Shown here: in pieces, positions 9,347 to 39,495 of the stretch
Numbering within the stretch: position 1 is the stretch's first letter
How the letters are laid out: every line of letters begins with the position of its first letter
DNA from: Gemmatimonadales bacterium
GTDB taxonomy: Bacteria > Gemmatimonadota > Gemmatimonadetes > Gemmatimonadales > JACORV01
Direction of reading: 5' to 3'
Assembly (NCBI GenBank): GCA_030697825.1
Contig: JAUYOW010000214.1
Location: 548 to 64,547, forward strand
Length of the DNA stretch: 64,000 bases
The notes under the pieces: model-generated
The model's input: the letters and a program-made list of their open reading frames with translations, nothing else
Told to the model about the DNA's origin: nothing
The model's database searches: none
Translations under genes and position numbers: made by a program

Positions 9347-9354
9347 GAGCCGCA

Positions 9355-10488
9355 ATGCCTGATACCCACGTTGCCGAACGCGCCGACGGCCACCACCTTG
9401 CAGGCGAGACCATGAGCGCTGCCACCACCGCCATCGATCCGGCGCTCGTCGCCGCGATCATCGACCTCTCGGCCGACGCCATCCTCACCGTTTCGCCCGA
9501 CGAGGTCGTGATGTCGTGGAACCAGGGCGCCCGGGAGATGTTCGGGTGGACGGCAGAGGAAATAGTCGGAAGACCGTTCACTGTTCTGCTGCCGGACGAG
9601 GCCATCGCGCGCGGCGAGCTGGAGTGGATCCACAGAACCACTCTGGCTGAAGGCGCGATCCGCAACTACGAGACCCGGCGCAGGCGCAGGGACGGCACCG
9701 TTTTCGACGTGAGCCTGACCCGTACCGCGGTGCGCGCACCCAACGGCGACCTGCTGGGATTCTCCGCCATCCTGCGCGACGTCTCCGACCGCAAGCGCCT
9801 CGAGCGCCAGCTCGCGCAGTCCGAGCGCCTCGCGACCGCCGGACAGGTCGCGGCCGGAGTCGCCCACGAGATAGGGGCACCGCTGACCGCGATCGCCATA
9901 GCGGTGGACCACATGCTGCGCTCGCGCTGTGCGGTCTGCGAAGGCGCCGAGGAGATGCGGATCCTCCAGTCGCAGACCGACCGGATCGCCAAGCTGGCGC
10001 GCCAGCTCGTCAACCTCGCCAAGCCGGCCGGCCTCTTGCTGGCCCCGGTAAACGTCAACGACGTCATCGCGCAGACGTCAGGCCTGATCCAGGCGCAGCT
10101 CCACCGTCACGCCGTACTGGTCACCCTGGACCTCGATCCCGAGCTGCCGGCCGTGCTCGGCGATGAGGCCCAGATCCAGCAGGTGTTCGTCAACCTGCTG
10201 CTCAACGCGCAGCACGCCCTCGAGGCCAGGGGGGGGAGGGTGAGGATCGAGACCGGGCGCGCGGACGCCAGGACCATCGAGATAGTCGTTTCCGATGACG
10301 GCCACGGCATCGAGGCATCGGACCTTCCGCACATCTTCACGCCGTTCTTCTCCCGTTCCGGCGGGACGGGCCTCGGCCTGGCCCTGGCCGCCCAGATAGT
10401 GCGCGCGCACCACGGCACCATCGAAGCGGCCTCGCCGGAGGGCGGCGGAGCACAGTTCATCATCCGGCTTCCCACGGCGGACGCATGA
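9355..10488 (+). CDS. cytoplasmic PAS-domain sensor histidine kinase
   Basis: PAS-like N-terminus (ILTVSPDEVVMSWNQGAREMFGWTAEEIVGRP). H-box AAGVAHEIGAPL. HATPase N/G boxes (NLLLNAQHAL, DDGHGI, GGTGLGLA). No TM segment seen. Confidence 0.85.
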   Translation: MPDTHVAERADGHHLAGETMSAATTAIDPALVAAIIDLSADAILTVSPDEVVMSWNQGAREMFGWTAEEIVGRPFTVLLPDEAIARGELEWIHRTTLAEGAIRNYETRRRRRDGTVFDVSLTRTAVRAPNGDLLGFSAILRDVSDRKRLERQLAQSERLATAGQVAAGVAHEIGAPLTAIAIAVDHMLRSRCAVCEGAEEMRILQSQTDRIAKLARQLVNLAKPAGLLLAPVNVNDVIAQTSGLIQAQLHRHAVLVTLDLDPELPAVLGDEAQIQQVFVNLLLNAQHALEARGGRVRIETGRADARTIEIVVSDDGHGIEASDLPHIFTPFFSRSGGTGLGLALAAQIVRAHHGTIEAASPEGGGAQFIIRLPTADA

Positions 10489-11915
10489 CCGAGCCCGACG
10501 TTCCCGTCGCTCCGGTGCGCCGCGTCCTGGTGGTCGAGGATGACGCCGTGGTGCGCCGCCTGCTCGAGAAGGTCCTCACCGACGAGGGGTACGAGACCGT
10601 GGGCGCCGCTTCCGGCGAGGAGGCGCTCACCGAGCTCGGCCGCCACCTCTTCGATGCCGTGCTCCTCGACCTCAACCTTCCCGGCATACAGGGTATGGAC
10701 GTGCTGGCGGTGGGCCCGACCCTCCAGACCGATACGCCTTTCATCGTGATGACGGCGTTCGGCTCGGTCGATACGGCCGTCGAGGCCATGAAGAACGGCG
10801 CGTTCGACTACGTGAGCAAGCCGTTCCGCACCGACGAGCTCCTCCTCACGCTGCGCCGCGCCCACGAGGAGACGGTACTCCGGCGGGAGGTGGCGCAGCT
10901 GAGGCGCCGGGTGAAAGAGGAGGGGCCCGGCGTCCGCATGGTGGGCAAGAGCGCGGGCATCGAGCGCGTCCGCGACCTAATCGCGCGGGTCGCGCCCAGC
11001 CGCGCCACGGTGCTCATCAGCGGGGACACGGGGACCGGCAAGGAGCTCGTCGCCCGCTCGATCCACGCCCTGTCGGGCCGCGCCGAGCATGCCTTCGTAG
11101 CCGTGAACTGCGCCGCGATCCCCGAGACGCTGATCGAGTCCGAGCTGTTCGGCCACATGAAGGGCGCGTTCACCGGAGCGATCGCGAACAAGCGCGGCCT
11201 GCTGGAGGAGGCGTCCGGCGGCTCGCTCTTCCTCGACGAGGTCGGCGCCATCTCGGCGAACATTCAGGTCAAGCTGCTGCGCACGCTCCAGGAGCGCACC
11301 ATCCTGCGGGTCGGCGGCCGCGAGCCGGTGCCGATAGACATCCGCCTGATCGCCGCCACCAACCTCGATCTCGCGGAGGAAGTGCGCGAAGGACGGTTCC
11401 GCGAGGACCTCTTCTACCGGGTGAGCGTTTTCCCGATCCACGTGCCGTCGCTGCGGGAGCGGCGCGACGACATCCCGGTCCTCGCCTCGTACTTCCTCCG
11501 GCGCGCCGCTTCCGAGCACGGGGTGGAGGCGCCGGCGATCCCGCCGGCCACCATGCAGCGGTTGCTGGACTACGACTGGCCGGGCAACGTCCGCGAGCTC
11601 GAGAATTTCGTCGAGCGCTCGGTGATCATGCACGCGGGCGCCAAGACGATCCCCTTCGATCCCAGCGAGGGCCTGCACCGCCGCCAGGAGCACGACCTGC
11701 TGAAGACGGCCCGCGCGGAACGGTGGAACCTGGAACGCCTCGAGCGCGAGTACATCCTTTCCGTGCTCGAGGAAGCAGGCGGTCACCAGGGCAAGGCCGC
11801 CGATGTCCTCGGCATCGACCGCCGCACCCTCTACCGGAAGCTGAAGCTGTATGGCGGGGAGACTGATGCCAGCGTCGAGGGCACGGTTCCCGAGGCCGAG
11901 GCGGCCCAGTCCTAA
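10485..11915 (+). CDS. sigma54-dependent response regulator (NtrC family: receiver + AAA+ + Fis-type HTH)
   Basis: ATGA overlap with the kinase. Receiver VLLDLNLPG. Walker A GDTGTGKE. GAFTGA motif. Walker B LFLDEVG. C-terminal HTH AADVLGIDRRTLYRKLKLYG. Confidence 0.9.
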   Translation: MTEPDVPVAPVRRVLVVEDDAVVRRLLEKVLTDEGYETVGAASGEEALTELGRHLFDAVLLDLNLPGIQGMDVLAVGPTLQTDTPFIVMTAFGSVDTAVEAMKNGAFDYVSKPFRTDELLLTLRRAHEETVLRREVAQLRRRVKEEGPGVRMVGKSAGIERVRDLIARVAPSRATVLISGDTGTGKELVARSIHALSGRAEHAFVAVNCAAIPETLIESELFGHMKGAFTGAIANKRGLLEEASGGSLFLDEVGAISANIQVKLLRTLQERTILRVGGREPVPIDIRLIAATNLDLAEEVREGRFREDLFYRVSVFPIHVPSLRERRDDIPVLASYFLRRAASEHGVEAPAIPPATMQRLLDYDWPGNVRELENFVERSVIMHAGAKTIPFDPSEGLHRRQEHDLLKTARAERWNLERLEREYILSVLEEAGGHQGKAADVLGIDRRTLYRKLKLYGGETDASVEGTVPEAEAAQS

Positions 11916-12807: not shown

Positions 12808-13365
12808 TCAGGCGTGCGCGGCGAGTTGGGCGAGGACCTGCTGCCCGTAGAACAGGCCGATGTAACGGGCCTGGGTGGGCGTGAGGCGCCGCACCGCCCA
12901 AGCCAGATGCACGAAGTGCGGCTCGGTGGGCGGGGTGAGCGGGAACATCCCCAGCTCCTCGGGGAGGTGGTTGCCCTTGCGCGCGTTGCAGGTGGAGCAC
13001 GCGGTGACGACGTTGGTCCACGCGTCGGTACCGCCCCGCGAGAATGGAACGAGGTGGTCGCGCGTCAGGCACTCGCGGTGCTTGAGCGTGGCCTGGGTCC
13101 GGCCGCAGAACTGGCACCGGTAGTCGTCACGCGCGAAGAGGAAGGTGTTCGTCACCTGGCGGCGGAACCGCCTCGGCACGTGGACGTACTTGTTCAGGCG
13201 GATGACCGCGGGACGCGGCAGCGCGAGCCGCTCGGAGCGGACGACGCGATCCGCGTCGGCCTCCACGATCTCGGCCTTCCCGTCGATGACCAGCCTGAGC
13301 GCCCGCCTGACGGGCACCATGGTGAGCGGCTCGAAAGACGCATTGAGCGCCAGACAGCGTACCAC
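12808..13365 (-). CDS. HNH endonuclease family protein
   Basis: CQFCGR...LTRDHLVPFSRGGTDAWTNVVTACSTCNARKGNH (HNH/zinc-ribbon signature). Confidence 0.8.
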   Translation of the reverse strand: MVRCLALNASFEPLTMVPVRRALRLVIDGKAEIVEADADRVVRSERLALPRPAVIRLNKYVHVPRRFRRQVTNTFLFARDDYRCQFCGRTQATLKHRECLTRDHLVPFSRGGTDAWTNVVTACSTCNARKGNHLPEELGMFPLTPPTEPHFVHLAWAVRRLTPTQARYIGLFYGQQVLAQLAAHA

Positions 13366-13563
13366 CTCCGGACTCCTCCACGCGGGCGCTTCACCCGCAA
13401 AAAAACCCGCCGCGCTCTATGGAACGGGACGGGCGTAGCGGGATGCCCCTTACGGATGTCGCTCTCGACCTTCGTCCCATAACAGCAAGGCACCCCAGCC
13501 AGAGATACTAGCCGCGGGAGCCTCCCGGGGCAAGCTCGCCCGAGGGGAACCGCGAGGCGGGGC

Positions 13564-28513: not shown

Positions 28514-29638
28514 ATGGTGACCGCCGCTACGTTAACCCCCGATGCGATGGCACGGCAAGCGGCGGTGAATCCCACCTGGCGTTTCGGTCTCGTCCTGGGC
28601 GGCGGCGGCATGCGCGGTCTCGCGCACGTGGGTGTGCTGCGCGCGCTCGAGGAGCGCGGCTGGATCCCCGCCGAGATCGTCGGCACCAGCATCGGGTCGC
28701 TGCTGGGAGCGGTCTGGGCCACCGGCCGGTACACCATCGCCGAGATGGAGCAGATCTCGCTCGATCTCACCCGTCGCGACATCTTCCAGATCGCGCACGG
28801 CGACATGGCGTTCAAGCGGATGCGCTCGCCCGCCCTCTACCGTTCCGAGCCCCTCGCCGCGCTCATCCAGCGCCTCGTCGGAGACGTGAAGTTCCGGGAG
28901 CTCAAGCGTACCCTCATCATCAATTCCGTCGACATCAACAGCGGCACCCAGATGTTCTGGGGGCTGCCGGGCCTCGGGGACATGCGGGTGGCGGACGCGG
29001 TGTTCGCCTCGTGCGCGCTGCCCGGGTTCTTCGCGCCCCACGAGATCGGCGGCCGCTTCTACGTGGACGGCGCGATCGTGGACAACCTTCCGGTGCGCAT
29101 CGCCGCGGCGCGCGGCATGGACGCGGTGGTGGCGGTGAACGTGGGGGCGTCGAGCCTCCTTCGCGCCGACACGCAGGAGGCGGGGTTCGCGGCGGTCTAC
29201 GCGCGCGGCTCCGAGATCGTATTCCAGCAGGCGATGGAGTGGCACCTGCGCTCCTGGGCCAAGCCACCGTTGCTCCTGGTGCAGCCCAGCGTGCAGCAAC
29301 TTCCCATGATGTCTTTCGACCACACGCGCGAGTTGATGGACGAGGGTCACCGCGCGACGCGGGTGGCGCTCGAGCGGACGGGGAACGCGATCCAGGCCGC
29401 GACCGAGGGGATCTTCCCCCGGCGGCTGGTGCAGATCCGCGTCAACGAGGAGCGGTGCATAGGCTGCGGCGCCTGCCTCAGCTACTCGGCGCCCGGGATG
29501 TTCAGGATGGAGAATGGGAAGGCAGTCGGGCCCGATGGCCCGTGCGAGTGGTCGCCGATAGACGGCGACGTGATCCGGCACTGCCCGACCTTCGCGATCA
29601 CGGCGCGGCCCGTGCCGGCCGCCTCGCCATCCGCCTAA
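28514..29638 (+). CDS. patatin-like phospholipase with C-terminal single-cluster ferredoxin domain
   Basis: Oxyanion GGGGMRG, nucleophile GTSIG, catalytic DGA. C-terminus CIGCGAC...(38 aa)...CP, a CxxCxxC...CP Fe-S ferredoxin pattern. An alternative ATG is at 28547. Confidence 0.8.
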   Translation: MVTAATLTPDAMARQAAVNPTWRFGLVLGGGGMRGLAHVGVLRALEERGWIPAEIVGTSIGSLLGAVWATGRYTIAEMEQISLDLTRRDIFQIAHGDMAFKRMRSPALYRSEPLAALIQRLVGDVKFRELKRTLIINSVDINSGTQMFWGLPGLGDMRVADAVFASCALPGFFAPHEIGGRFYVDGAIVDNLPVRIAAARGMDAVVAVNVGASSLLRADTQEAGFAAVYARGSEIVFQQAMEWHLRSWAKPPLLLVQPSVQQLPMMSFDHTRELMDEGHRATRVALERTGNAIQAATEGIFPRRLVQIRVNEERCIGCGACLSYSAPGMFRMENGKAVGPDGPCEWSPIDGDVIRHCPTFAITARPVPAASPSA

Positions 29639-31119
29639 CTGACCCTCCGCCGCGGGCCCCGGTCCGTGCGCGTCGTGTCTATCCATAGACTGTCCGGGAT
29701 GCCGGGAGGCGCCCGGCCCGCCGCGTGACAGTTGTCGCACGAGAGACCGGCCTCGAGAACGTGCCCGGCGTGGGTCAGAGGCCTTCCCGAAACAGTATCG
29801 CCTCCCGCCCGCGCCTCCTCGATCCCGTAGTGACAGTAGGTACAGCCGCCGTCGGCGACCGGGGGCCCCAGCTCCGGCCGCGGCGGTGGGGTGCGCGACG
29901 CCAGCTGGTACGCCTCCACGGTCAGAGCGAGGGCGCGCCGCATCACCTGGTCCACCACCGGCAGGTTGTGCATCGGCCCCGCGCGGTCCACGAACGCGAG
30001 CTGGCTTCCTGCCTGACGGAGCCTGACCTTCGCGGCGCGGGGGGCCGCGCTGTCGCCGAGCGCCGCTTCCGCGTCGCGCAAATAGCCGCTCACCCAATCG
30101 CGCCGACGCGCGTATCCGCGACGCCACCTTTGCAGGATGCCGCTCCATTCGCCGCCGTGGCAGCCGGTGCACGCCGCGGGCGTGGTGCGCAACGACCGTC
30201 CGGGGCGGGGCGGCGCCTGGCCCGGCGCCGCGTGACAGGAGCGGCAGGTGACCCCGGCCATGAACATCGAGTTGGGGCGGAGCTCCTCGCCCGGCATCAG
30301 GCCGAGCATGAGTCGCTGCTGCTCCGAGTGCACGCTTTCATGGCAGTCGGCGCAGGCCGCGGTCCGCGACGTGTCGGCGGGGATGGGCCGCCGGTGCCGG
30401 GACGCGTGACAGTCCAGGCACCGTAGCACGATGGACGAGCTCATCGCGACCACCCGGTGCGCCGGCTGCGTGTGGCAGGCCCGGCAGGCGAAGTCACCGT
30501 GCGTGGTGTGCGCCCGCGCGGCGTTGATCGTCGTATCGATCGTCTCGGCCGGGCGGGCGCGGTCACCCCGGTGGCAGTCGGTGCAACGCGCGACAGCTAC
30601 CGCCGTATCGCCCTCCACGAGCTGGTAGTGGCAGCGCGTGCACGGCACCTGGGCGCTCTGAAGCGAGGGATGTGGCAGCTGCAGGCCCTGGCTGGTCTGC
30701 CGCGTGTGTCGAGGAGCTGGGTGGCAGCCGGCGCAGCCGGTGTCGCTGCGCCCGGCGATTTGCGTGAAGTGGCACAGCACGCAGGCCGACGCGTCCGCGG
30801 CGAGAGACATCGAGTCCGGCGCGTGAGAGTGGCAGGCCGCGCACGGGACGACGCGGCCGTCGCCCGCCGGGTGGCTGTCGTGCGCGAACTCCACCATCGC
30901 CACGCGCGCCCGCGCCGGGCCGCCGGTCGGGTGGCAGCGCTGCGTGGAGCAAGCCCCGTCCGGCACACCGACGCGCCCGGCCTCCACGGCGCCCTCCCGG
31001 TGGCAGCCGAGACACGCCACGCGCTGGTGCGCGAGTCGCCGTGCCCCGCCCTCCTCGCGCCCACAGCCGCAGAGCGCGGCGACCAACCCGACGGCGACGC
31101 CCAAGCGCCCTACTAGCAC
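29635..31119 (-). CDS. 13-haem c-type cytochrome lipoprotein (plus one CX4CH)
   Basis: GTG 31119 overlaps the upstream stop (GTGCTAG). Signal/lipobox GLVAALCGC-G. 13 CXXCH plus CSTQRCH. Confidence 0.85.
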   Translation of the reverse strand: MLVGRLGVAVGLVAALCGCGREEGGARRLAHQRVACLGCHREGAVEAGRVGVPDGACSTQRCHPTGGPARARVAMVEFAHDSHPAGDGRVVPCAACHSHAPDSMSLAADASACVLCHFTQIAGRSDTGCAGCHPAPRHTRQTSQGLQLPHPSLQSAQVPCTRCHYQLVEGDTAVAVARCTDCHRGDRARPAETIDTTINAARAHTTHGDFACRACHTQPAHRVVAMSSSIVLRCLDCHASRHRRPIPADTSRTAACADCHESVHSEQQRLMLGLMPGEELRPNSMFMAGVTCRSCHAAPGQAPPRPGRSLRTTPAACTGCHGGEWSGILQRWRRGYARRRDWVSGYLRDAEAALGDSAAPRAAKVRLRQAGSQLAFVDRAGPMHNLPVVDQVMRRALALTVEAYQLASRTPPPRPELGPPVADGGCTYCHYGIEEARAGGDTVSGRPLTHAGHVLEAGLSCDNCHAAGRAPPGIPDSLWIDTTRTDRGPRRRVS

Positions 31120-33173
31120 AGCGTTCCCCAGAGCACGAGGCCGATCAGGAGGAGGCCGACACCGAGGAGCAGCAAGCCGCTCACGGCCGCGACCATGTTC
31201 ATCCATCCGGGCGGCGGCGGAGCCGCCTCGTCGATGATCGCCCGGCGGCTGGGTTCCTTCCCTTCCACCTTAGCCCGCAACGCCCCGGCGATCAGCGGAT
31301 GCTCCTCCTCCATGTACCGGAGCGAGGCGCGGCCAGTGAACATGACCGCGTCGAGCGGCCACTTGTCGGGCCGGAGATGGACGTTGAAGAAGTGGATGAT
31401 GAAGATGAAGGCGGTCGCGATCATCGCCTCGTACGAGTGGATGATGATGGCGACGTTGAACACGATGCCGGGGAAGATCCGCGCGAAGAACACCGGCTGC
31501 CAGAGCACGATGCCGGTCGCGCTGATGATGCCGACGCCCCACAGCTCCGCGAAGTAGTCGAACTTCTCCAGGTAGCTATACCGGCCGAACTGCGGCTTCG
31601 GCCCGCGCCCGAAGAACCACTTCACCATCGCCACCGCATCGCGCGCGTCCTGCCACCGGAAGGCGATCGACTCGGATCCGAGCAGCAGGCCGCGCTTGTC
31701 CCGCGCCCTCCACACCCGGTACGCCAGGTACGCCGCGTAGAGCCCGAAGTAACCGAAGACCATCACGCCGGCAACGCGATGGATCCGACCCGCGAGTATC
31801 CCGCCGCCCAACAGCCGTGCCAGCGCCGGCGCCCACGCGGTGCAGCTGTACCTCAGGGGCAGCCCGGTGAGGACCAGCAGGTAGAAGCTGGCCACGATCA
31901 GCGCGTGGATGACCCGGAAGACGAGGTTGAAACGCCACACGTAGGGTGGGCCGCCCCGCAACGCGGCGTCAAGCGGTTCGGCCGGCGCCGCGTGCGCCGC
32001 CGCGGGTTGCCGCCGCCGGTCGATCATCGTGCGCGCGTACCACAGGGCCGCGTGCGTACCCCACCCGATCATCGTGCCGTACAGCACGACGTTCATGAAG
32101 AACCAGATGTAGAAGATCCCCGGGTTCTGCGCGCGGCTCCTGGGGTTGGCGTGGGGCCGATACCCGGCGAACCCTCCGCTCGCGCCCTCGTGGCAGTGCC
32201 GGCAAGTCGCGATCCGGTTCCCGGCGGAGACGGTCGAGGCCGGGTCCGTCGTCCGGAACACGGCATGCGCCGTGTGGCAGTCGGCGCACTCGGCGGCCCG
32301 AACGGAGCCCAGGGCCGCGGCCTGGCCGTGATAGGTGTCGCGGAAGGTCGAGCCATACTCCTCGTGGCACCGCGTGCACGCGAGCGTCGACGCGAACCGC
32401 CAGGTGGGATCGCTGGCGCGACGGATCCCGTGCTCGCCGTGGCAGGAGATGCAGGTCGCCGCGGTGTCGGCGCCGATCGGCTCCACCCCCGAAGCCTGGC
32501 GCGCCGCGGTGCGCCCGTGGACGTCGCCCCAGTACGTCGCGCTCTCCTTCGTGTGGCACGCGCTGCACGCGCGGGCGAGCGCCAGGTCGATCTTCCGCGT
32601 GGCCTCATCGGGCACGGGACGCATGTCGTGCGTGCCGTGGCAGCGGGTGCACGCGATCGAGTCCCCGTGCACGTCGCGGGCGGCGCTCCGCACCTGCCCC
32701 GGGTGGCAGCGCCGGCACGCCTCGCGCATGTGCGCGCGGCCGGCGGCCGTCGGCAGGAAGCCGGACCGCGCGACGTCGTGCCCGCCGTGGCAAGCGACGC
32801 AGGTCGCGGCCGGCGCGTCCCCGCGCGCCCTGGCATGGACCCCCGCCCGCCAGCGGGAGTCCTGTTCGGCGTGGCAGCGACCGCACACCACCCGCAGCGC
32901 CGCCGCCGGCTGGTGCGGATAGCGCTCGACGCCGGTGTGGCAGGCGGCGCACGCCACGCTCGCGTGCGGCCCGCCCGAGAGCGCGGCGCGCGTCACGACG
33001 AGGCCCGCTCCGACGTTCCGATCGGAGGCCGCCCCGAGCAGGAACTCCCGGCTCGCGTGGCAGCGCTCGCACTCGGGGGACCGCTGGGCGCGCGCGGGCC
33101 GGGCCGGGAGGGCGGCGAACACGGCGGCGAGCGCGGTGACGACCGAGGTGCGCGCTAGCATAGTTGCACCCAC
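31113..33173 (-). CDS. CbcL-like fusion cytochrome: periplasmic 11-haem c domain + C-terminal b-type (FdnI/HydC-like) membrane domain, copy 2
   Basis: Signal peptide ...ALAAVFAALPARPARAQ. 11 CXXCH. Then about 5 TM helices with conserved His (RVIHALI, RIHRVAG, IIIHSYEAM, FIIHFFNVHLRPDKWPLD). Start is GTG 33173 or ATG 33161 (the ATG overlaps the upstream stop as ATGCTAG). Confidence 0.85.
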   Translation of the reverse strand: MGATMLARTSVVTALAAVFAALPARPARAQRSPECERCHASREFLLGAASDRNVGAGLVVTRAALSGGPHASVACAACHTGVERYPHQPAAALRVVCGRCHAEQDSRWRAGVHARARGDAPAATCVACHGGHDVARSGFLPTAAGRAHMREACRRCHPGQVRSAARDVHGDSIACTRCHGTHDMRPVPDEATRKIDLALARACSACHTKESATYWGDVHGRTAARQASGVEPIGADTAATCISCHGEHGIRRASDPTWRFASTLACTRCHEEYGSTFRDTYHGQAAALGSVRAAECADCHTAHAVFRTTDPASTVSAGNRIATCRHCHEGASGGFAGYRPHANPRSRAQNPGIFYIWFFMNVVLYGTMIGWGTHAALWYARTMIDRRRQPAAAHAAPAEPLDAALRGGPPYVWRFNLVFRVIHALIVASFYLLVLTGLPLRYSCTAWAPALARLLGGGILAGRIHRVAGVMVFGYFGLYAAYLAYRVWRARDKRGLLLGSESIAFRWQDARDAVAMVKWFFGRGPKPQFGRYSYLEKFDYFAELWGVGIISATGIVLWQPVFFARIFPGIVFNVAIIIHSYEAMIATAFIFIIHFFNVHLRPDKWPLDAVMFTGRASLRYMEEEHPLIAGALRAKVEGKEPSRRAIIDEAAPPPPGWMNMVAAVSGLLLLGVGLLLIGLVLWGTLC

Positions 33174-36100
33174 ATGATCATGCCGACGATGACCAGTCCG
33201 ACGGCGAGAGCCAGCAGGCCCAGAGTCGCAGCCGCGATCGTCATCCAGCGCGGCGGCGGCGGCGCCGGCGCGTCGGGGACGGCGCGAGGGCTGACCGGAC
33301 GCGAGGCCAGGTCACCCCAGGTTTCGGCGGTGAGCGGGTGATCCGCCTCGAGTGACTCCGCCGTGGCGCGGCCGGTGAACATCACGCCGTCCAGCGGGAA
33401 CTTGTCCGGCCTGAGGTGCACGTTGAAGAAGTGGATGAGGAACATGAAGCCGGCGGCGAGCATCGCCTCCTCGGAGTGGATGACCGCCGCGACGTTGAAC
33501 GCCCAGCCGGGCAGGATCCTCGTGAAGATGCCCGGGAACCAGCGGATCAGTCCCGTGCCACCTAGCAGCACGATCCCCCAGAACGCGCCGAAGTAGTGGA
33601 ACTTCTCGTTGTAGCCGTACCGGCCGAAGCGCGGATACGGCGCCCTGCCGAAGAACCACTTGAACATCTGCACGAAGTCGCGGAAGTCCTGGGGCTGCGG
33701 GACCACCGAGTCGGGACCCCACAACATCGCCCGCCGGTTGGTGGAGCGCAGGAGCAGCACCGTGGTGTAGACGACGTGCGCGGTGAAGTACAGCACGGTG
33801 ACGGCGCCGGCGCCGCGGTGCACCAGGCCGGCGACACGGGTGCCGCCGAGGAGGCGCATCATGTCCACCGCCCACACCGCGCACGAGAAGCGGAGCGGCA
33901 GGCCGGTGATGACGAGCGCGAAGAAGCTGACGACCGAGACGCCGTGCACCAGGCGATGGAAGAGCTTGAAGCGCCAGACGTACGGCCCTTTCCCCCGGTC
34001 GGCGCTGTCCATGGGCGTGCGCTCCTTCGGCCGCGGGGGCAACCCCAGCGCCTTCCGCCGCCGCCGCTCGGCCCACCGGATCTCAAGCAGCCGCGCCAGC
34101 CACAGCACGGTGTGCAGCCCGAACACCGCGAACACCGAGAAGAGCAGCACGTTCATCAACAGCCATGCGGCGAAGACCGGCGGGCTGTCGGAGGGATCGC
34201 GGGCACGGACGTGGGCCCGGTAGGAGACGAAGCTGGGCCGCGCGGCCGACCCGTGGCACGCGGCGCAAGTCTCTACCCTCCGCCCGGCGGACGTGGACGC
34301 GCGGGGATCGCTGGAGGGGAAGATCTCGTGAGAGCCGTGGCAGTCCACGCAGCGCGCAGCGCGGTAGTAGCCGACGCGCGTCGCGCGTCCGTGGTAGGTG
34401 TCGGCGTAGGACTCCCCCTCGCGCCGGTGGCAGGCCCCGCACCGCTCGACCAGGGCCACTTCGCGATCGAGGGCGTGTGCAGGCTTCATTCCGTGGCCGC
34501 CGTGGCAGGCAACGCAGGTGGCAGCGGTGTCGGCGTGAAGCGGGGCCGCTCCCGCGACCTGCGCGCGCGCCGCGATCCCGTGGACGTCGCGGAACGCGAC
34601 CGTCGCCACCGAGTCGTGGCAGCCCGCGCACCGCTCCGAGATGGCGATGGGGACGCCGCGCGTGGCAGGATCGCGCACCGGCTGGATCATGTGTGCCCCG
34701 TGGCACGTGGCGCAGCTCACCCGGTCCTTGTGCACGTCGCCCGGCGGGAAGGGCCGGTCCGCGTGACACGCCACGCAGCGCGCCGAGAGCGCTATCGCGC
34801 CCGCGCCGCGCTCGAGCTCCCGGCTTGGTCGCACGTCGTGCGTGCCGTGACAGCTCGCGCATCCCGCCTCCTCCCGGCCGCGGCGGCCCCCGTGGGGACC
34901 GGCCCGCCACAGCGAATCCGCCTCGGTGTGGCACGTCCCGCACGGCACCACCGCGCGCCCTTCCTCCGGGTGCGGCAGGAGGCCGGGGATGGGGTGGCAG
35001 CGCACGCAGGGCACGGACGCGTGGACGGTGCCGCTCAGCTCGTCGCGCGAAACGAAGAGCGAGTCGGCATGGTAGCCGGCCGGCGCCCGCCGGTGGAGGA
35101 ACTCGCGGTCGGCGTGGCAGATCTCGCACTGCGCGCTCGTCCGCCGCTCCGCGGCCGTCTGCGCCCGGAGGAGCGGCGCCACGGCAAGCAAGGCGGCCGC
35201 GAGAAGGCCGTACCGTTTCATCCGGGTGCGCACCTGATGCCGGCTGATGCCGAGCGCCTCCGCGGCGCGGGACTGGTTGCCTCGGGCGTGCTCGAGCGCC
35301 GCGACGAGGAGCCGGCGCTCGACCTCCTCCAGCGTCGTCCCGCCAGAGACGGCGGCGCTTGCCTGCGGCGCCGCCAGCTCGGGCGGCAGCTCACGGGTGC
35401 CGAGCGTCTCGCCGTCGGCGAGGAGCACCGCGCGCTCGATGACGTTCTTGAGCTCCCGCACGTTGCCGGGCCAGGGATAGCGGGCCAGCACGGCCAGTGC
35501 GCCCGGCTCGACCCCGCGCACTCTCTTGCCGAGCTCGCGGTTGAACTGGGCCACGAAGTGCTTGGCCAGCGGCTCGATGTCCTCGGGTCGCTCGCGCAGC
35601 GGCGGCATGGTGATGGGGATGACCCGCAGCCGGTAGAAGAGGTCGGCGCGGAACCGTCCGGCATCGACCTCCTCGGCGAGCGACCGGTTGGTGGCGGCCA
35701 TGATCCGCACGTCCACCTTCAGATCGCGGGTGGCGCCGAGGCGGCGGAACGTCTTCTCCTCGATGAACCGGAGGAGCTTGGCCTGGACACCCGGGGTCAG
35801 CTCGCCGATCTCGTCGAGGAAGAGGGTGCCGCCGTCGGCCATCTCGACCAGTCCGCGCTTGGCCGCGTGGGCGTCGGTGAAAGCGCCGCGCTCGTGCCCG
35901 AACAGCTCCGATTCCATGAGCGTCTCGGGGAGCGCGGAGCAGGTCACGTTCATGAACGGCCGCGCGGCCCTCGGGCCGAGCCGGTGTATCGCCTGCGCGA
36001 TCGCGCCCTTGCCGGTGCCGCTCTCGCCCTCGATCAGTACGGTGGTCGCATCCGCCGCGGCCAGGCGCGCGACCAGCTCGAAGACGCGCTCCATTGCCGG

Positions 36101-36535
36101 TCCGGTGCCGATCACCGTCGTGCCGGCCAGCGAGCTGCGGTCCCGCAGCGCCGCGACCTCGCGGCGCAGCGCCGTCACCGCCAGCGCCTGCCGCACGGTC
36201 GCGACCGCGCGATCCAGCGAGAACGGCTTTTCCAGGAAATCGTGCGCGCCGAGCTTCAGCGCTTCCACGGCCAGGCTGACCGTGGCGTGCGCGGTCATCA
36301 CGACCCACACGCTGTCGCCGCCGTGCGCCGCCTCGCGGAGCAGATCGAGCCCTTCGCCGTCCGGCAGGCGGAGGTCGAGCAGCACGACATCCGGCGCAGC
36401 GGTGTCCAGCCCGGCGCGCGCCTCACGCAGGGTACCGGCGGCCGCCACCTCGATGCCTTCGTGCTGCAACCGCTCGGCGAGCACGCTGCGCAGCAGGGCA
36501 TCGTCTTCCACGATGAGGAGACGCTCTCCGGCCAT
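33155..36535 (-). CDS. single uninterrupted ORF: sigma54-dependent response regulator (36535 to about 35205) joined in frame to CbcL-like 11-haem + b-type membrane cytochrome, copy 1 (internal ATG 35221 to 33155)
   Basis: Receiver (VVLLDLRLPDGEG), AAA+ (GESGTGKG, GAFTDA, LFLDEIG) and HTH (AAEALGISRHQVRTRMKRYGL) run with no stop codon into LLAAALLAVAPLLRAQ (signal-peptide-like). Then come 11 CXXCH and TM helices with RLVHGVS, LVHRGAG, AVIHSEEAM, FLIHFFNVHLRPDKFPLD. ATG 36535 shares one base with the kinase stop (TGATG). Confidence 0.8.
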   Translation of the reverse strand: MAGERLLIVEDDALLRSVLAERLQHEGIEVAAAGTLREARAGLDTAAPDVVLLDLRLPDGEGLDLLREAAHGGDSVWVVMTAHATVSLAVEALKLGAHDFLEKPFSLDRAVATVRQALAVTALRREVAALRDRSSLAGTTVIGTGPAMERVFELVARLAAADATTVLIEGESGTGKGAIAQAIHRLGPRAARPFMNVTCSALPETLMESELFGHERGAFTDAHAAKRGLVEMADGGTLFLDEIGELTPGVQAKLLRFIEEKTFRRLGATRDLKVDVRIMAATNRSLAEEVDAGRFRADLFYRLRVIPITMPPLRERPEDIEPLAKHFVAQFNRELGKRVRGVEPGALAVLARYPWPGNVRELKNVIERAVLLADGETLGTRELPPELAAPQASAAVSGGTTLEEVERRLLVAALEHARGNQSRAAEALGISRHQVRTRMKRYGLLAAALLAVAPLLRAQTAAERRTSAQCEICHADREFLHRRAPAGYHADSLFVSRDELSGTVHASVPCVRCHPIPGLLPHPEEGRAVVPCGTCHTEADSLWRAGPHGGRRGREEAGCASCHGTHDVRPSRELERGAGAIALSARCVACHADRPFPPGDVHKDRVSCATCHGAHMIQPVRDPATRGVPIAISERCAGCHDSVATVAFRDVHGIAARAQVAGAAPLHADTAATCVACHGGHGMKPAHALDREVALVERCGACHRREGESYADTYHGRATRVGYYRAARCVDCHGSHEIFPSSDPRASTSAGRRVETCAACHGSAARPSFVSYRAHVRARDPSDSPPVFAAWLLMNVLLFSVFAVFGLHTVLWLARLLEIRWAERRRRKALGLPPRPKERTPMDSADRGKGPYVWRFKLFHRLVHGVSVVSFFALVITGLPLRFSCAVWAVDMMRLLGGTRVAGLVHRGAGAVTVLYFTAHVVYTTVLLLRSTNRRAMLWGPDSVVPQPQDFRDFVQMFKWFFGRAPYPRFGRYGYNEKFHYFGAFWGIVLLGGTGLIRWFPGIFTRILPGWAFNVAAVIHSEEAMLAAGFMFLIHFFNVHLRPDKFPLDGVMFTGRATAESLEADHPLTAETWGDLASRPVSPRAVPDAPAPPPPRWMTIAAATLGLLALAVGLVIVGMIMWVQLC

Positions 36536-37995
36536 CAGGCCTCCGCCATCTCCGCCGCGGCCGCCGCGGCGCGCACCGGGAATCGCAGGTGGAAGACCGT
36601 GCCCCGGCCGACCTCGCTCTCGACCCACACGCGACCGCCGTGCGACGCGACCACGCGCGCCACCAGCGCGAGACCGAGGCCGGTACCGTACGGCTTGGTG
36701 GAGAAGAAGGGCTTGAGGATGCGGTCGATGTTCTCGGGCGCGATCCCGACTCCCGTGTCAGCCACGTCCACCGCGACATCCTCGCCGCCGGAGCGGGTCG
36801 TGACGGTGAGCGTGCCCCCGCCCGGCATGGCTTCGACCGCGTTGACCAGCAGGTTGTGCATCGCCTGCTCCAGCCGCGCCGAGTCACCATCGATGACCGG
36901 GACGGCGGGGCCGTAGTCGCGCACCACGGTCACCCGCTCGGACCCCGGCACGCCGGAGAGCCGCACCAGCGCCGCGTCTATCACCTCGTGCAGCTTCGTG
37001 GGCTGCGCGTTCAGGCCCACCGGCTTGGCGAGGCTCAGGAGGTCGCGCAGCGTCTGATCGAGCTGCACCAGCTCGAGGTCCACGCGCCGTAGCAGCGCCT
37101 TCTCTCCGTCGCTCATCGCATACTCCTGCGCGATCAGCTCGATGGCGCTCTTGATGCCGGCGAGGGGACGCTTGATCTCGTGCCCGACCTCCGCCGCCAG
37201 CGCCCCGACCTCCGCGAACCCCGCCTGCTCCACGAGAGTGCGCCCGCGGGTCTGAGCGAGACGCTCGGCCTGCTGCTCCCTGGCGATCAGCGCATCCACC
37301 GATGCGCCCAGCCGGCCGAATTCGTCGCGGCGCTCCATTCCCACCCGCGCGCCCTGCTCGCCCGCCCTGGCCCGCGCCAATCCCGCGCGCAGCTGTCCCA
37401 GCGGCGCGACAATCTCGCGCTCGAGCATCGCGCCCAGCACCACGGCATAACCGAGCCCTAGCAGTACGGTGAGCACCACGCCGTAGGTGCGTCCCCGACG
37501 GATCGTGTCTCCTATTTTCTTCTCGTTGAGCAGGAACTCCAGCGTGGCGCGCCCTCCCGGGCCTCCGACGCCCGAAAGCGCAACCACGGCGCTGACGATG
37601 GGCGCGCCGGCACCGCTCACTACCAGCCCTTCGGGCGGAATGTCCCGCGGGTCCGGCAGCGCGGCGCCGATCCTCTTGGCGCCTTCCTCGGCAGGACTGC
37701 TGGAGAGGAGAACACGGCCGTCGAACGCGACGATCCGGTAGCCCTCGGCGGGGGGACGGTTGGTGAGCGAATCGAGCCGCTCGCGCACCAGTCCCACCTG
37801 TCCGTGAGCCAGAGCGCCCTCGATCGAGGGCCGAATGGCGCGGGCGGCCATCAGCGCGTGGTCCGCGGTGAGGGTGAACTGCTCACGCTCCCAGTAGCGG
37901 AACGACAGCAGCGTCGCCGTGCCCAGCACCACGAGCAGGGCGCCCAGCCCGGTCACGAGGACCTTGGCGCGGACCGACAGGTCTTGCAGCCTCAT
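36535..37995 (-). CDS. membrane sensor histidine kinase (TM - periplasmic domain - TM - HAMP-like - HisKA - HATPase)
   Basis: Start ATG 37995 (MRLQDLSVRAKVLVTGLGALLVVLG). Second TM YGVVLTVLLGLGYAVVLGAML. H-box AAEVGHEIKRPL. N/G boxes NLLVNAVEAM, DTGVGI, GTGLGLA. Confidence 0.85.
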   Translation of the reverse strand: MRLQDLSVRAKVLVTGLGALLVVLGTATLLSFRYWEREQFTLTADHALMAARAIRPSIEGALAHGQVGLVRERLDSLTNRPPAEGYRIVAFDGRVLLSSSPAEEGAKRIGAALPDPRDIPPEGLVVSGAGAPIVSAVVALSGVGGPGGRATLEFLLNEKKIGDTIRRGRTYGVVLTVLLGLGYAVVLGAMLEREIVAPLGQLRAGLARARAGEQGARVGMERRDEFGRLGASVDALIAREQQAERLAQTRGRTLVEQAGFAEVGALAAEVGHEIKRPLAGIKSAIELIAQEYAMSDGEKALLRRVDLELVQLDQTLRDLLSLAKPVGLNAQPTKLHEVIDAALVRLSGVPGSERVTVVRDYGPAVPVIDGDSARLEQAMHNLLVNAVEAMPGGGTLTVTTRSGGEDVAVDVADTGVGIAPENIDRILKPFFSTKPYGTGLGLALVARVVASHGGRVWVESEVGRGTVFHLRFPVRAAAAAAEMAEA

Positions 37996-38012
37996 CCACT
38001 GTGCGAAAAGGC

Positions 38013-38027
38013 GCAATCCGCGTGCCG
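38013..38027 (-). promoter_or_regulatory. near-consensus sigma54 (-24/-12) promoter upstream of the kinase/regulator/cytochrome operon
   Basis: The minus strand reads CGGCACG-CGGA-TTGCG against consensus TGGCACG-N4-TTGCW. It lies in the 73-bp gap between the upstream gene stop (38069) and ATG 37995, with the -12 GC 18 nt before the ATG. Confidence 0.55.
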
Positions 38028-38068: not shown

Positions 38069-39277
38069 CTAGATCGCCAGAAGCCCGAGCACCGCGCCGG
38101 CAGATGCGTGCGCGGCGATGGCCGTCCCCAGGCCGCGACGCCAGAACAGATATCCGAACAGGACGGCCGGGATGGCCATGCGGGCCACCACGTAGGAGAC
38201 GGTGACGGCGACGCCCGGAAGGCCGAGGGCCGGAACCATGGGCCAGTGGACCAGCATGTCGGCAAGGGTCGCGACCACCACCGCGACACCCACGGCCCAC
38301 TCGCGCCGGGGTGGAACGAACCGCATCACCAGGACGAAGGCGACTGTGAAGAGGAAGAGCCTCAGCGCCAGCTCATCGGCGACCGCGTCGGCCACCGCGA
38401 GGACGACGGCGCGCGTCACGCCGAGCCGCGAAGCGTCGGTGGGGATGCCGAGCACTCCCTCGCTGAACGGCACCGCCAGGAGCGCCACCACGACGCCCGC
38501 CGCGCCCGCCAGTCCCGCGCGCCCGAGCAGGTCACGCCACCCGCGCGCCGGACCGAAGCGGGCGACCGGGAGCAGCGGCCGGACCTTCCGCAGCAGCGCC
38601 AGTCCGGTGGTGATGATCGGCCCGTAGAACCAGAAGGTGGCGGCGATCACGAACACGGCCGCCCCGATGCCAGTGAGCCGCACGTCGGTGAACCAGATGG
38701 TCGGACGGCGGATCGCCACGGTCACGGCCAGCGCGACGAAGGTGGCGCCGACGAGGAGCGTGCCCGGCACCCGGTCCGGCCAGCGCCGGTAAGCGAGCTT
38801 CGCGGCGTCGAGGCCCGCGCCCGCGGCGAACGCGAGGACGCCGAAGGTCAGCAGCCACGCGAGCACCGACACCGCGGTCGCGAACACCTTGTGACTGTGG
38901 AGCGCTATCGGCAGGGTGGCCACCCACCCCGCCGTGAGCCATCCGAGCAGCAGAGCAGGCACCAGATAGATCAGGCCGTGCGCCATCTGGCCGGCGGCCA
39001 CGCGCGGCGTCGTGCCATCCGGCCGCCCGAAGATGCCGAGGACCAGCCCGTGCAGCAGCCCGAGCGCCGCGCCGATCGCGTAGAGCAGCACGCTCATCAT
39101 CAGGAACGCGTGTGCGCTCAGCCGGTCGGTCGCCAGCAGGCCGACCACGGCCACGCCACCCAGCAGCAGCCCGCCAGCGAGGGACCACGCGATGAGCACC
39201 GCCGCCGGCAGCTCCACTTCGCGCTGCGGAACGTGGGTGCCCGTCGCGCCAGCCTGGAGATCCGCGTTGGTCGTCAT
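38069..39277 (-). CDS. polytopic membrane protein, possible CPBP/Abi-type intramembrane protease domain at the C-terminus
   Basis: ATG 39277 preceded by GCAGGAGGTGGTT (strong SD). At least 10 hydrophobic helices. The C-terminal DELALR...LVHW...AAHAS only loosely resembles the CPBP motifs EExxxR / FxxxH / HxxxN. Confidence 0.55.
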   Translation of the reverse strand: MTTNADLQAGATGTHVPQREVELPAAVLIAWSLAGGLLLGGVAVVGLLATDRLSAHAFLMMSVLLYAIGAALGLLHGLVLGIFGRPDGTTPRVAAGQMAHGLIYLVPALLLGWLTAGWVATLPIALHSHKVFATAVSVLAWLLTFGVLAFAAGAGLDAAKLAYRRWPDRVPGTLLVGATFVALAVTVAIRRPTIWFTDVRLTGIGAAVFVIAATFWFYGPIITTGLALLRKVRPLLPVARFGPARGWRDLLGRAGLAGAAGVVVALLAVPFSEGVLGIPTDASRLGVTRAVVLAVADAVADELALRLFLFTVAFVLVMRFVPPRREWAVGVAVVVATLADMLVHWPMVPALGLPGVAVTVSYVVARMAIPAVLFGYLFWRRGLGTAIAAHASAGAVLGLLAI

Positions 39278-39495
39278 AACCACCTCCTGCCTCGGTACAC
39301 CTTCATCTGCGCTTCCGATGGCAAGGAGAGGCATGGGCGGTGCCAGGAGACGCGGGCAGCGCGCGACAATGGCTATCGCACTTGGCGCCCGCGACTTGCG
39401 GGTAGGAGGAGGATCGAGCGGGTCGCTGTGGCGAAGGCGCGGTTGCGCCGATCGGGCCAGCAACTGTGTGAAGCGGAACAGGCGGGAGGGCAGAT

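Follow-up and report, generated by a model that had tools for sequence, protein, structure and literature searches.

We examined a 64,000-nucleotide stretch of a Gemmatimonadales genome (contig JAUYOW010000214.1 of assembly GCA_030697825.1; the whole stretch is called the window here) and found that a gene on its minus strand joins a complete sigma-54-dependent response regulator, one of the bacterial enhancer-binding proteins (bEBPs), to a multihaem membrane cytochrome with no stop codon between them. The end of the regulator's Fis-type helix-turn-helix (HTH) is also the charged beginning of a segment that looks like a cleavable Sec signal peptide, and the junction recurs in 61 protein clusters and 17 species representatives. 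At a rough probability of 60%, we read the gene as encoding a polyprotein with an internal Sec signal peptide, which would be cut by signal peptidase into the two proteins that relatives encode separately.

A response regulator and a cytochrome in one reading frame

A first-pass annotation, made from the letters alone, had reported that the regulator reads without a stop into the cytochrome, and we confirmed a single open reading frame (ORF) at 33155-36535. In the ORF listing the minus-strand stop-free frame is longer (33155..36628, or 1157 amino acids counted from a GTG); homologues begin at MAGERLL, that is at ATG 36535, which gives a fused protein of 1126 amino acids. Because the genome has a G+C content of 70.8%, the long stop-free frame in itself carries little weight, and the weight comes from its conservation. 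The parts of the gene are as follows.

33155..36535, minus strand, stop codon included: fused gene comprising regulator, signal peptide-like segment and cytochrome (ORF list, Pfam, homologues)
36194..36517, minus strand: receiver domain, residues 7-114 (Pfam, invariant residues)
35612..36112, minus strand: sigma-54-interaction AAA+ domain, residues 142-308, with Walker A GESGTGKG and loop GAFTDA (Pfam, alignment)
35210..35335, minus strand: Fis-type HTH, residues 401-442 (complete Pfam HTH_8 match)
35162..35221, minus strand: internal signal-peptide-like segment M439-A458 (MKRYGLLAAALLAVAPLLRA), with a predicted signal peptidase I site between A458 and Q459 (alignment, residue rules, AlphaFold2)
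34184..35161, minus strand: predicted periplasmic multihaem c-type domain, residues 459-784, 11 CxxCH (Pfam, motif count)
33158..34183, minus strand: membrane part, with a helix at 785-830 after the haem domain, an FdnI/HydC-type cytochrome b domain at about 855-1037 and a C-terminal helix at 1096-1125 (Pfam, hydropathy, AlphaFold2)

The regulator half is that of a bEBP. Pfam matches, given here in the numbering of the 1157-residue ORF, were Response_reg (38-145, 1.5e-23), Sigma54_activat (173-339, 2.7e-64), AAA_lid_14 (345-425) and HTH_8 (432-473), the last of which was matched over its full profile (1-42 of 42) up to the Y of MKRY (Y442). The receiver keeps the acidic pocket, the phospho-acceptor Asp and the Lys: among 51 fused homologues D11, D12 and K103 were invariant and D54 was present in at least 90%. 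Walker A was likewise invariant among the aligned fused homologues. The GAFTDA loop was found in 56 of the 59 fused proteins scored and in 119/119 unfused relatives, compared with 13/57 unrelated bEBPs; it is a natural variant and the norm of the family, and the functional residues of the activator are intact. Past Y442, the usual NtrC-type C-terminus would follow shortly, as in the second regulator of the window (10485-11915), rightly proposed as a normal comparison, which stops 21 residues after its KLKLYG. Here no stop is met and the chain runs on for 684 residues. By its domains the protein belongs to the bEBPs; its architecture is atypical.

In the cytochrome half, Pfam recognized multihaem c-type domains including Cytochrome_C7 and c3, and all 11 haem motifs were invariant across the family. 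The helix that follows the haem domain has more than 30 apolar residues, and further helices are predicted in the cytochrome b membrane domain. The b domain itself was matched below curated thresholds, with 25.7 bits for Ni_hydr_CYTB at 886-1068 (same numbering; cut-off 30.1) and an E value of 1.6e-7 for the formate dehydrogenase gamma model TIGR01583, far under its cut-off. Judged from the alignment, both halves are under strong purifying selection.

The end of the HTH resembles the start of a signal peptide

The junction reads GGC ATC AGC CGG CAT CAG GTG CGC ACC CGG ATG AAA CGG TAC GGC CTT CTC GCG, which is translated without a stop as GISRHQVRTR followed by M (ATG 35221) and KRYGLLAAALLAVAPLLRAQTAAERRTSAQCEICH. 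When 51 members were aligned, the HTH end was invariant or nearly so (L428, G429, x, S431, R432, H433, Q, R436, T, R, M, K/R, R, x, G443, L444), and its common pattern in the fused proteins was SRHQxRTRMKRYGL followed by a Leu/Ala-rich stretch. Over the next dozen or so positions identity fell to 0.2-0.7 with hydrophobicity at 0.8-1.0. Conservation then returned at A458 (0.94) and Q459 (0.90), after which the sequence was variable until the first CxxCH.

The claim that the residues from MKRYGL onward form a signal peptide was examined with a rule-based check of the n-, h- and c-region layout, the -3 and -1 residues, a helix breaker and the length, and all 61 junctions conformed to this layout. 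The n-region is RTRMKR, the end of the HTH recognition helix. Position -1 was Ala in 58 clusters and Gly in 3, with Gln at +1; position -3 was A in 42, L in 13 and I, S, M, G, P or V in one each, so that A, L, I, S or V stood there in 58/61 and M, G or P in 3/61. A Pro or Gly breaker lay within -7..-2 in 61/61, and the distance from the Leu after G443 to the cleavage site was 14-22 residues (median 18). The apolar run comprised 13 residues in the window protein and about 10-16 across the family. The segment starts at residue 439 of 1126 and is thus internal, not N-terminal. In an AlphaFold2 model built with the family alignment, of moderate quality with a predicted local distance difference test score (pLDDT) of 69.8, residues 432-451 formed one helix in which the recognition helix ran into the hydrophobic core, and residues 452-459, over the predicted site, formed a loop with pLDDT below 50.

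From these residue patterns the segment looks like a cleavable Sec signal peptide rather than a stable membrane anchor, for which its apolar stretch of about 13 residues appears too short. A Tat signal was rejected, many members having KR and not RR, and so was a lipoprotein signal, no Cys being present at the site. The c-type cytochromes are exported unfolded via Sec. The two fates of the site differ in their predicted tryptic peptides: AQTAAER, which spans A458-Q459, and YGLLAAALLAVAPLLR are expected from uncleaved or tail-bearing forms, and QTAAER, as a semi-tryptic or pyro-Glu peptide, from the cleaved form.

The fusion is conserved in uncultured Gemmatimonadota

A full-protein search of JGI, ENA, NCBI and Logan data retrieved both halves in one chain in the 61 clusters, at 46-98% identity. 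About 18 of them had 1126-1158 amino acids and were 60-98% identical over their full length; about 40 had some 830 amino acids and ended after the haem domain and one helix, with the cytochrome b part as the next, overlapping gene; and two clusters of 801 amino acids showed only 46% identity. Length changes in the hydrophobic stretch preserved the reading frame across the fused clusters. We also scanned one genome per GTDB species. The junction motif was found in 17 loci, all from Gemmatimonadales or Gemmatimonadota metagenome-assembled genomes (MAGs), some with contig names of Illumina/megahit style (k141), others from a different project (MFD) that names its contigs differently, and in 17/17 of these loci the regulator read into the cytochrome in frame. 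MAG names and contig titles suggest SPRUCE peat, isolate fen_1246 and the MFD project as sources. When the junction was compared between related genomes, as proposed beforehand, all fused members had a single layout in common.

A profile was searched against 1.84 billion representatives (50% identity), of which only three were intact fused proteins (P0001, P0037 and P0058). The other strong matches covered the cytochrome part only and lay mostly near the N-terminus, and the internal matches that were checked were plain multihaem proteins. Collectively, these searches point to a fused family that is real and phylogenetically narrow, apparently confined to uncultured Gemmatimonadota.

Two variations within the cytochrome half were seen alongside. 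In L011 (P0059) and L017 it is frameshifted, with 2 or 4 CxxCH left in frame and the junction intact; these are either assembly errors or decaying copies. Moreover, the c and b parts form one chain in the proteins of about 1130 amino acids and two overlapping genes in those of about 830 and 801 (window 33158-34183 compared with L002:12487-13380 and L001:12399-13271). The two states interleave on the regulator tree described below, so that both fusion and fission are frequent at the c/b junction too.

Unfused relatives encode the same proteins as two genes

When the regulator half alone was used as the query, close stand-alone regulators were retrieved. The existence of such unfused relatives, and an origin of the fusion at least twice as indicated by the tree below, had not been foreseen in the first-pass annotation. 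The regulator of locus L021, from the same JGI sample as the 98%-identical fused locus L003, is 73% identical to that of the window, in an operon made up of an unknown membrane protein, a kinase, the regulator, two CbcL-like cytochromes and a further multihaem protein. It ends in RTRMARYGLAGPRKP and a stop (short form RMARYGLAGPRKP), followed by a 14-nt spacer. The cytochrome then starts with GTG and KKRTVVWTTVLLAALLLGLCAESARG, and carries its own signal peptide, VKKRTVVWTTVLLAALLLGLCAESARG, predicted to be cleaved before QTAVERQLSAQCQLCH; this mature end aligns with QTAAERRTSAQCEICH of the window protein. In L022 (61% identical, on a 5.4-Mb contig) the regulator ends in RNRLKKFGVEI and its stop overlaps the cytochrome ATG by 4 nt. 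The fused gene is orthologous to these two-gene systems, in which the cytochrome has an ordinary N-terminal signal peptide ending at the Gln homologous to Q459. By this comparison the fused gene differs from the two-gene layout in lacking the short tail of the regulator with its stop, the spacer, the start codon and the n-region proper to the signal peptide, whose role the basic HTH end takes over.

A third arrangement was found in three loci, where the regulator keeps a signal-peptide-like hydrophobic tail before its stop, and the stop overlaps the ATG of a cytochrome bearing a fresh signal peptide (MLRRAFLLAALGAACAVPVRA before Q).

L023:7290-8100, strand not stated: tail-only form (sequence reading)
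L024:1982-2400, strand not stated: tail-only form (sequence reading)
L025:3019-3586, strand not stated: tail-only form (sequence reading)

Since these loci encode such regulators as separate genes, a hydrophobic regulator tail is evidently tolerated. A tandem duplication of the junction was considered as the source of the tail-only forms and rejected, the DNA similarity in L025 being no higher than in shuffled sequences.

A neighbour-joining tree of the regulator halves, which is rough and indicative only, contained a clade with Leu at the junction that was almost entirely unfused, with fused P0058 and P0060 at its base, and a clade with Met at the junction that was mostly fused, with unfused and tail-only forms nested within it. 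This topology implies at least two independent fusions, probably with reversals or further fusions. The fusion may be adaptive, or it may be that tightly coupled genes tolerated losing the roughly 60 nt between them; that it arose repeatedly, and that tail-only forms exist, speaks slightly for some advantage in associating with the membrane.

The operon and its sigma-54-type promoters

The fused gene lies in a cluster with a membrane protein, a sensor kinase and further cytochromes, with sigma-54-type elements before the membrane-protein gene and before the kinase gene.

39331..39345, minus strand: second sigma-54-type -24/-12 element, TGGCACCGCCCATGC, about 55 nt upstream of the 402-residue protein gene (pattern GGCAC-N5-(A/C)TGC)
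38069..39277, minus strand: first gene of the cluster, 402-residue polytopic membrane protein (synteny, AlphaFold2)
38013..38027, minus strand: sigma-54-type promoter, CGGCACGCGGATTGC(G), with its -12 GC about 20 nt before the kinase ATG (pattern match, cross-locus conservation)
36535..37995, minus strand: sensor histidine kinase, 486 amino acids, HAMP/HisKA/HATPase_c (Pfam)
31113..33161, minus strand: unfused paralogue with its own signal peptide, MLARTSVVTALAAVFAALPARPARA before Q, 11 CxxCH and a cytochrome b domain (ORF list, Pfam)
29635..31104, minus strand: third cytochrome gene, with a putative start from synteny with L003

The genes are closely packed. The kinase stop and the regulator ATG share an A (TGATG), and a strong GGAGG precedes the regulator start. 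The ATG of the paralogue overlaps the stop of the fusion (ATGCTAG), and its signal peptide is normal, ending ARA before Q. For the third cytochrome 13 CxxCH were counted on a longer ORF (29635-31206), one of them upstream of the start placed by synteny.

Upstream DNA could be scanned in 22 sequences, counting the window, and 19 of them have a match to the -24/-12 element CGGCACGCGGATTGCG (GGCACGCGGATTGC) in the short spacer ahead of the kinase gene. It was identical in most, fused and unfused alike, while the flanks diverged. An element like the second one occurs at the same place in L001, L003, L004, L006, L020, L021 and L023. Across the window, 51 sigma-54-like sites were observed against 55.6 expected from shuffles, a count not above chance, and the promoter claim therefore draws on position and cross-locus conservation. 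On these grounds the operon is very probably sigma-54 dependent, and the embedded activator would be the obvious candidate to drive its own operon. The earlier suggestion that the activator controls the cytochrome is supported indirectly by the conserved promoter before the kinase-regulator-cytochrome operon; no enhancer sites were found. In the motif search for upstream activating sequences ahead of the conserved promoter, in a region that overlaps coding sequence, only the promoter block and a short TCCGC.TGC stood out.

The kinase ATG lies about 20 nt past the -12 GC with no sequence resembling a Shine-Dalgarno between them (window 37995-38027), which implies that the 5' leader of the operon mRNA would be very short or absent.

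The 402-residue membrane protein matched nothing in Pfam, even at E<=10, or in NCBIfam, and had only 148 homologues, all annotated as hypothetical. Its AlphaFold2 model (pLDDT 88) was all-helical with about 12 helices, and a Foldseek search of the PDB with this model gave no fold match (best E 0.4). The gene stood upstream of the kinase gene in all loci whose gene lists were examined (L001, L002, L003, L021, L022 and L023), fused or unfused; homologues were placed from the locus gene lists as follows.

L001:7278-8465, strand not stated: homologue of the 402-residue protein
L002:7252-8472, strand not stated: homologue of the 402-residue protein
L021:3123-4376, strand not stated: homologue of the 402-residue protein
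L022:3218-4399, strand not stated: homologue of the 402-residue protein

We considered whether this protein could free the regulator as an intramembrane protease of the CPBP type. Although it has an invariant [DE]ExxxR motif, L001/L022 carry Tyr/Asn in place of the candidate His residues, and neither a Pfam match nor a PDB fold match was obtained; the idea is unsupported. No protease gene was found linked to the operon, and no protease signature of the 402-residue protein is kept throughout the lineages.

A probable polyprotein with an internal signal peptide, and its alternatives

Among the possibilities raised by the first-pass annotation, a chimera that could be cut by signal peptidase fits best, given the conserved cleavage-site pattern and the signal peptide of unfused orthologues that ends at the homologous Gln. 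In such a polyprotein, one mRNA would be made from the sigma-54 promoter before the kinase gene, and regulator and cytochrome would be translated as a single chain. Receiver, AAA+ activator and Fis-type HTH would pass without a linker into the Sec-type signal peptide, the end of the recognition helix (RTRMKRYG) supplying its positively charged n-region. As the hydrophobic stretch left the ribosome the chain would be targeted to the Sec translocon, the 11-haem domain would be exported and matured in the periplasm, the cytochrome b helices would insert in the membrane, and signal peptidase I would cut between A458 and Q459. One product would be a CbcL-like bc-type membrane cytochrome, such as unfused relatives make from a separate gene; the other would be a 458-residue activator with a 16-residue signal-peptide remnant (after G443) as a hydrophobic C-terminal tail. 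Because this tail is too short for a stable transmembrane anchor, the activator would probably be freed, either spontaneously or by signal-peptide-clearing proteases such as RseP or SppA, and it could then bind DNA and activate its own operon. RseP of Escherichia coli is documented to remove leftover signal peptides and to set free the N-terminal cytoplasmic fragment of FecR (PMC8144685). Single-chain translation, cleavage, release and autoregulation are what we infer from the conserved features above; if they take place, regulator and cytochrome would be synthesized 1:1, and the regulator would be born at the membrane beside its membrane-bound kinase.

Several points weigh against this polyprotein. 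Its signal peptide is internal and stands behind about 440 folded residues, which is unusual for a signal peptidase substrate; the AlphaFold2 model is, as said, only moderate; equimolar amounts of an activator and a respiratory cytochrome are an odd dosage; and the upstream motif search identified no enhancer sites to back autoregulation in addition to the promoter. The cleavage-site pattern could also be mere inheritance from an ancestral N-terminal signal peptide, a point countered by its persistence at 46% identity and in two independent fusions.

It is possible, and in our view unlikely, that the chimera stays uncleaved, the segment acting as a permanent signal-anchor that keeps the activator covalently joined to the periplasmic multihaem and cytochrome b module. 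Such a protein would act like ToxR or CadC as a sensor-regulator bound to the membrane, its activator being tuned by the redox state of either its haems or the quinone pool. The continuous ORF kept in 61 clusters is compatible with it, as is the model in which the recognition helix extends into the hydrophobic helix, and the stand-alone regulators with hydrophobic tails (L023-L025) hint that membrane association may itself be useful. However, an apolar run of only about 10-16 residues with a Pro or Gly breaker in every cluster is typical of cleaved signal peptides, and the -3/-1/+1 pattern is kept where all else varies. Furthermore, the HTH adjoins the membrane without a linker, which would force DNA up against the bilayer; the unfused orthologues work as two proteins; and a receiver domain with a cognate kinase already supplies the signal input. 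A related variant of the polyprotein, tentative and in our judgement rather improbable, has the membrane-born activator barred from DNA until the cytochrome is exported and the signal peptide cut and cleared, so that successful Sec export and maturation of the cytochrome would gate transcription of the operon. If true, it would be the sigma-54 counterpart of the way SREBP or FecR is released from the membrane, with signal peptidase in the part of the site-1 protease, and the two fusion origins and the tail-bearing regulators would reflect selection for tethering, not neutral stop loss.

A poorer prospect still is nested initiation in frame, in which the cytochrome would be made mainly from ATG 35221, with MKRYGL as the beginning of an N-terminal signal peptide and the fusion as a minor by-product. 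Met stands at the junction in 59/61 clusters, AGGTG lies 9 nt upstream of ATG 35221 in the window, and a surplus of cytochrome over regulator would make sense as dosage. This possibility, also raised at first pass, found no positive support across the family. Met439 belongs to the conserved HTH; its position is occupied by M or L in unfused relatives and by Leu in two fused clusters, the codon being CTG in the one such locus read (P0060/L001). In that lineage the in-frame GTG and TTG codons lie only inside the hydrophobic core, where no n-region would precede it, so an independent start does not seem to be needed. CAGGTG encodes Gln-Val and becomes CAGATC or CAGATT in the Ile variants, leaving no conserved internal ribosome-binding site, in contrast to the GGAGG before the regulator start. 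Nor could internal initiation abolish the fusion protein, since in the absence of a stop every ribosome on the regulator continues into the cytochrome. We give hardly any credence to an artefact or decay, that is, a stop lost to an error of sequencing or assembly, a gene that recently became a pseudogene, or a frameshift or termination programmed near MKRYGL. In its favour, every source is a metagenome assembly, the window has a TGA in the +1 frame that overlaps the ATG (A-TGA-A), and some relatives (L011 and L017) are frameshifted inside the cytochrome part; but the same in-frame junction occurs in the 61 clusters and in 17 species-level MAGs from independent projects and different assemblers, hence it is not a sequencing error, and the lost stop that had been allowed for is refuted. 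The frame-preserving length changes and the strong purifying selection on both halves point the same way. A programmed +1 frameshift onto A-TGA-A was rejected, as the TGA is absent in 7/21 sequences compared, the MRR and MHR variants.

Other observations

The window holds a second module on the plus strand at 7007-11915, comprising a 779-residue multihaem cytochrome (7007-9346), a PAS histidine kinase (9076-10488) and the bEBP at 10485-11915, which has a GAFTGA loop and an ordinary stop 21 residues past its HTH. In this genome, then, multihaem cytochromes stand beside sigma-54 two-component systems in more than one place. A 202-residue HNH endonuclease gene (12808-13416, minus strand) lies between this module and an argininosuccinate lyase gene.

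The searches also returned other bEBPs in which the HTH leads directly into the export signal of another passenger. In P0099 a Fis-type HTH ending LYRRMKRLGI passes through LGAMLIFALRAGA, before QEAQ, straight into an unknown secreted part; in P0087 the HTH reads into a TolC/OEP-like protein; and in the PilR-like P0076 it reads into a type IV prepilin signal (KG before FTLIE). Each of these junctions comes from a small cluster and may be an artefact. P0479 (1423 amino acids) combines SecA domains (DEAD, preprotein cross-linking, wing/scaffold) with four C-terminal Fis-type HTH_8 repeats; it is unrelated to the fusion except via the HTH match.

Comparison with known systems

Searches of the literature for bEBPs that are anchored in the membrane or fused to a cytochrome returned nothing describing this arrangement, in line with the first-pass remark of being unaware of any description. 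The ORFs are already present in public databases under automatic dual names, for example 'NtrC family response regulator/cytochrome b subunit of formate dehydrogenase'. Annotation pipelines currently call such ORFs either regulators or cytochrome b subunits, which misrepresents the respiratory genes of the abundant soil and peat Gemmatimonadales.

The closest counterparts of the parts are the cbcBA/BccR system and CbcL (GSU0274) of Geobacter sulfurreducens, bc-type inner-membrane quinol:cytochrome oxidoreductases. CbcL has a multihaem c domain with nine CxxCH followed by a HydC/FdnI-like dihaem b membrane domain (PMC6295460). The window cytochrome, with its multihaem c domain and FdnI/HydC-type b domain, is CbcL-like in architecture, a likeness of domain layout given that the b-domain matches fall under curated cut-offs; it differs in having 11 CxxCH and in coming from the phylum Gemmatimonadota. 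In Geobacter sulfurreducens the cbcBA operon has a sigma-54 promoter, requires the bEBP BccR, and includes a gene for an RpoN-dependent response regulator directly upstream of its b- and c-type cytochrome genes (bioRxiv 10.1101/2021.04.15.440034). The window resembles it in the order of sigma-54 promoter, kinase, bEBP and bc-type cytochromes, whereas the Geobacter regulator and cytochromes are separate proteins.

Sigma-54 activators are soluble proteins with a free C-terminal HTH. The fused regulator shares with those of the NtrC, AtoC and ZraR type, including the unfused orthologues in Gemmatimonadales and Longimicrobiales, the domain order and, with the orthologues, the GAFTDA loop, the SRHQxR helix and the kinase-cytochrome operon; they terminate 2-21 residues after the HTH, whereas the window protein has no stop there. 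Membrane-tethered regulators are known in other classes: RseA and FecR (through RseP), pro-sigma-K and the eukaryotic SREBP and ATF6 are freed by proteolysis, and ToxR and CadC are membrane-bound activators. These regulators have a cytoplasmic regulatory domain, one membrane-crossing segment and an extracytoplasmic part, as the fused protein would. However, no sigma-54 activator is among them; their transmembrane anchors are true ones and come with linkers, and what lies outside the cytoplasm is a sensor and not a respiratory enzyme. Release of the RseP type is for the window regulator a conjecture from its predicted tail, and its hydrophobic run is shorter than a typical anchor.

A precedent for the processing model is FbcH of Bradyrhizobium japonicum, reportedly described by Thony-Meyer and colleagues in PNAS in 1991 as a cytochrome b/c1 polyprotein with an internal signal peptide, at which signal peptidase is said to free the downstream c-type cytochrome. 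Its two proteins are encoded as adjacent genes in other bacteria. The likeness lies in the single ORF with halves that are separate adjacent genes in relatives (here L021 and L022), although separation of the window products is predicted from the cleavage-site pattern. If cleavage occurs, the rare bacterial polyproteins with internal signal peptides would extend to a regulator and enzyme pair, and the family would offer a natural system for the handling by Sec and signal peptidase of a signal sequence behind a large folded domain; were the regulator tethered, or released under control, the expression of genes would be coupled in a new way to the biogenesis of the envelope. FbcH differs in its upstream partner, which is an integral membrane subunit of the same enzyme, and in the window protein the n-region of the signal peptide belongs to the DNA-recognition helix. 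What is new is that a soluble DNA-binding AAA+ activator is paired with an exported enzyme and that the end of the HTH serves twice: in this family a DNA-recognition helix can also act as a signal peptide's n-region, and a cytoplasmic regulator and a periplasmic cytochrome can be encoded as one chain.

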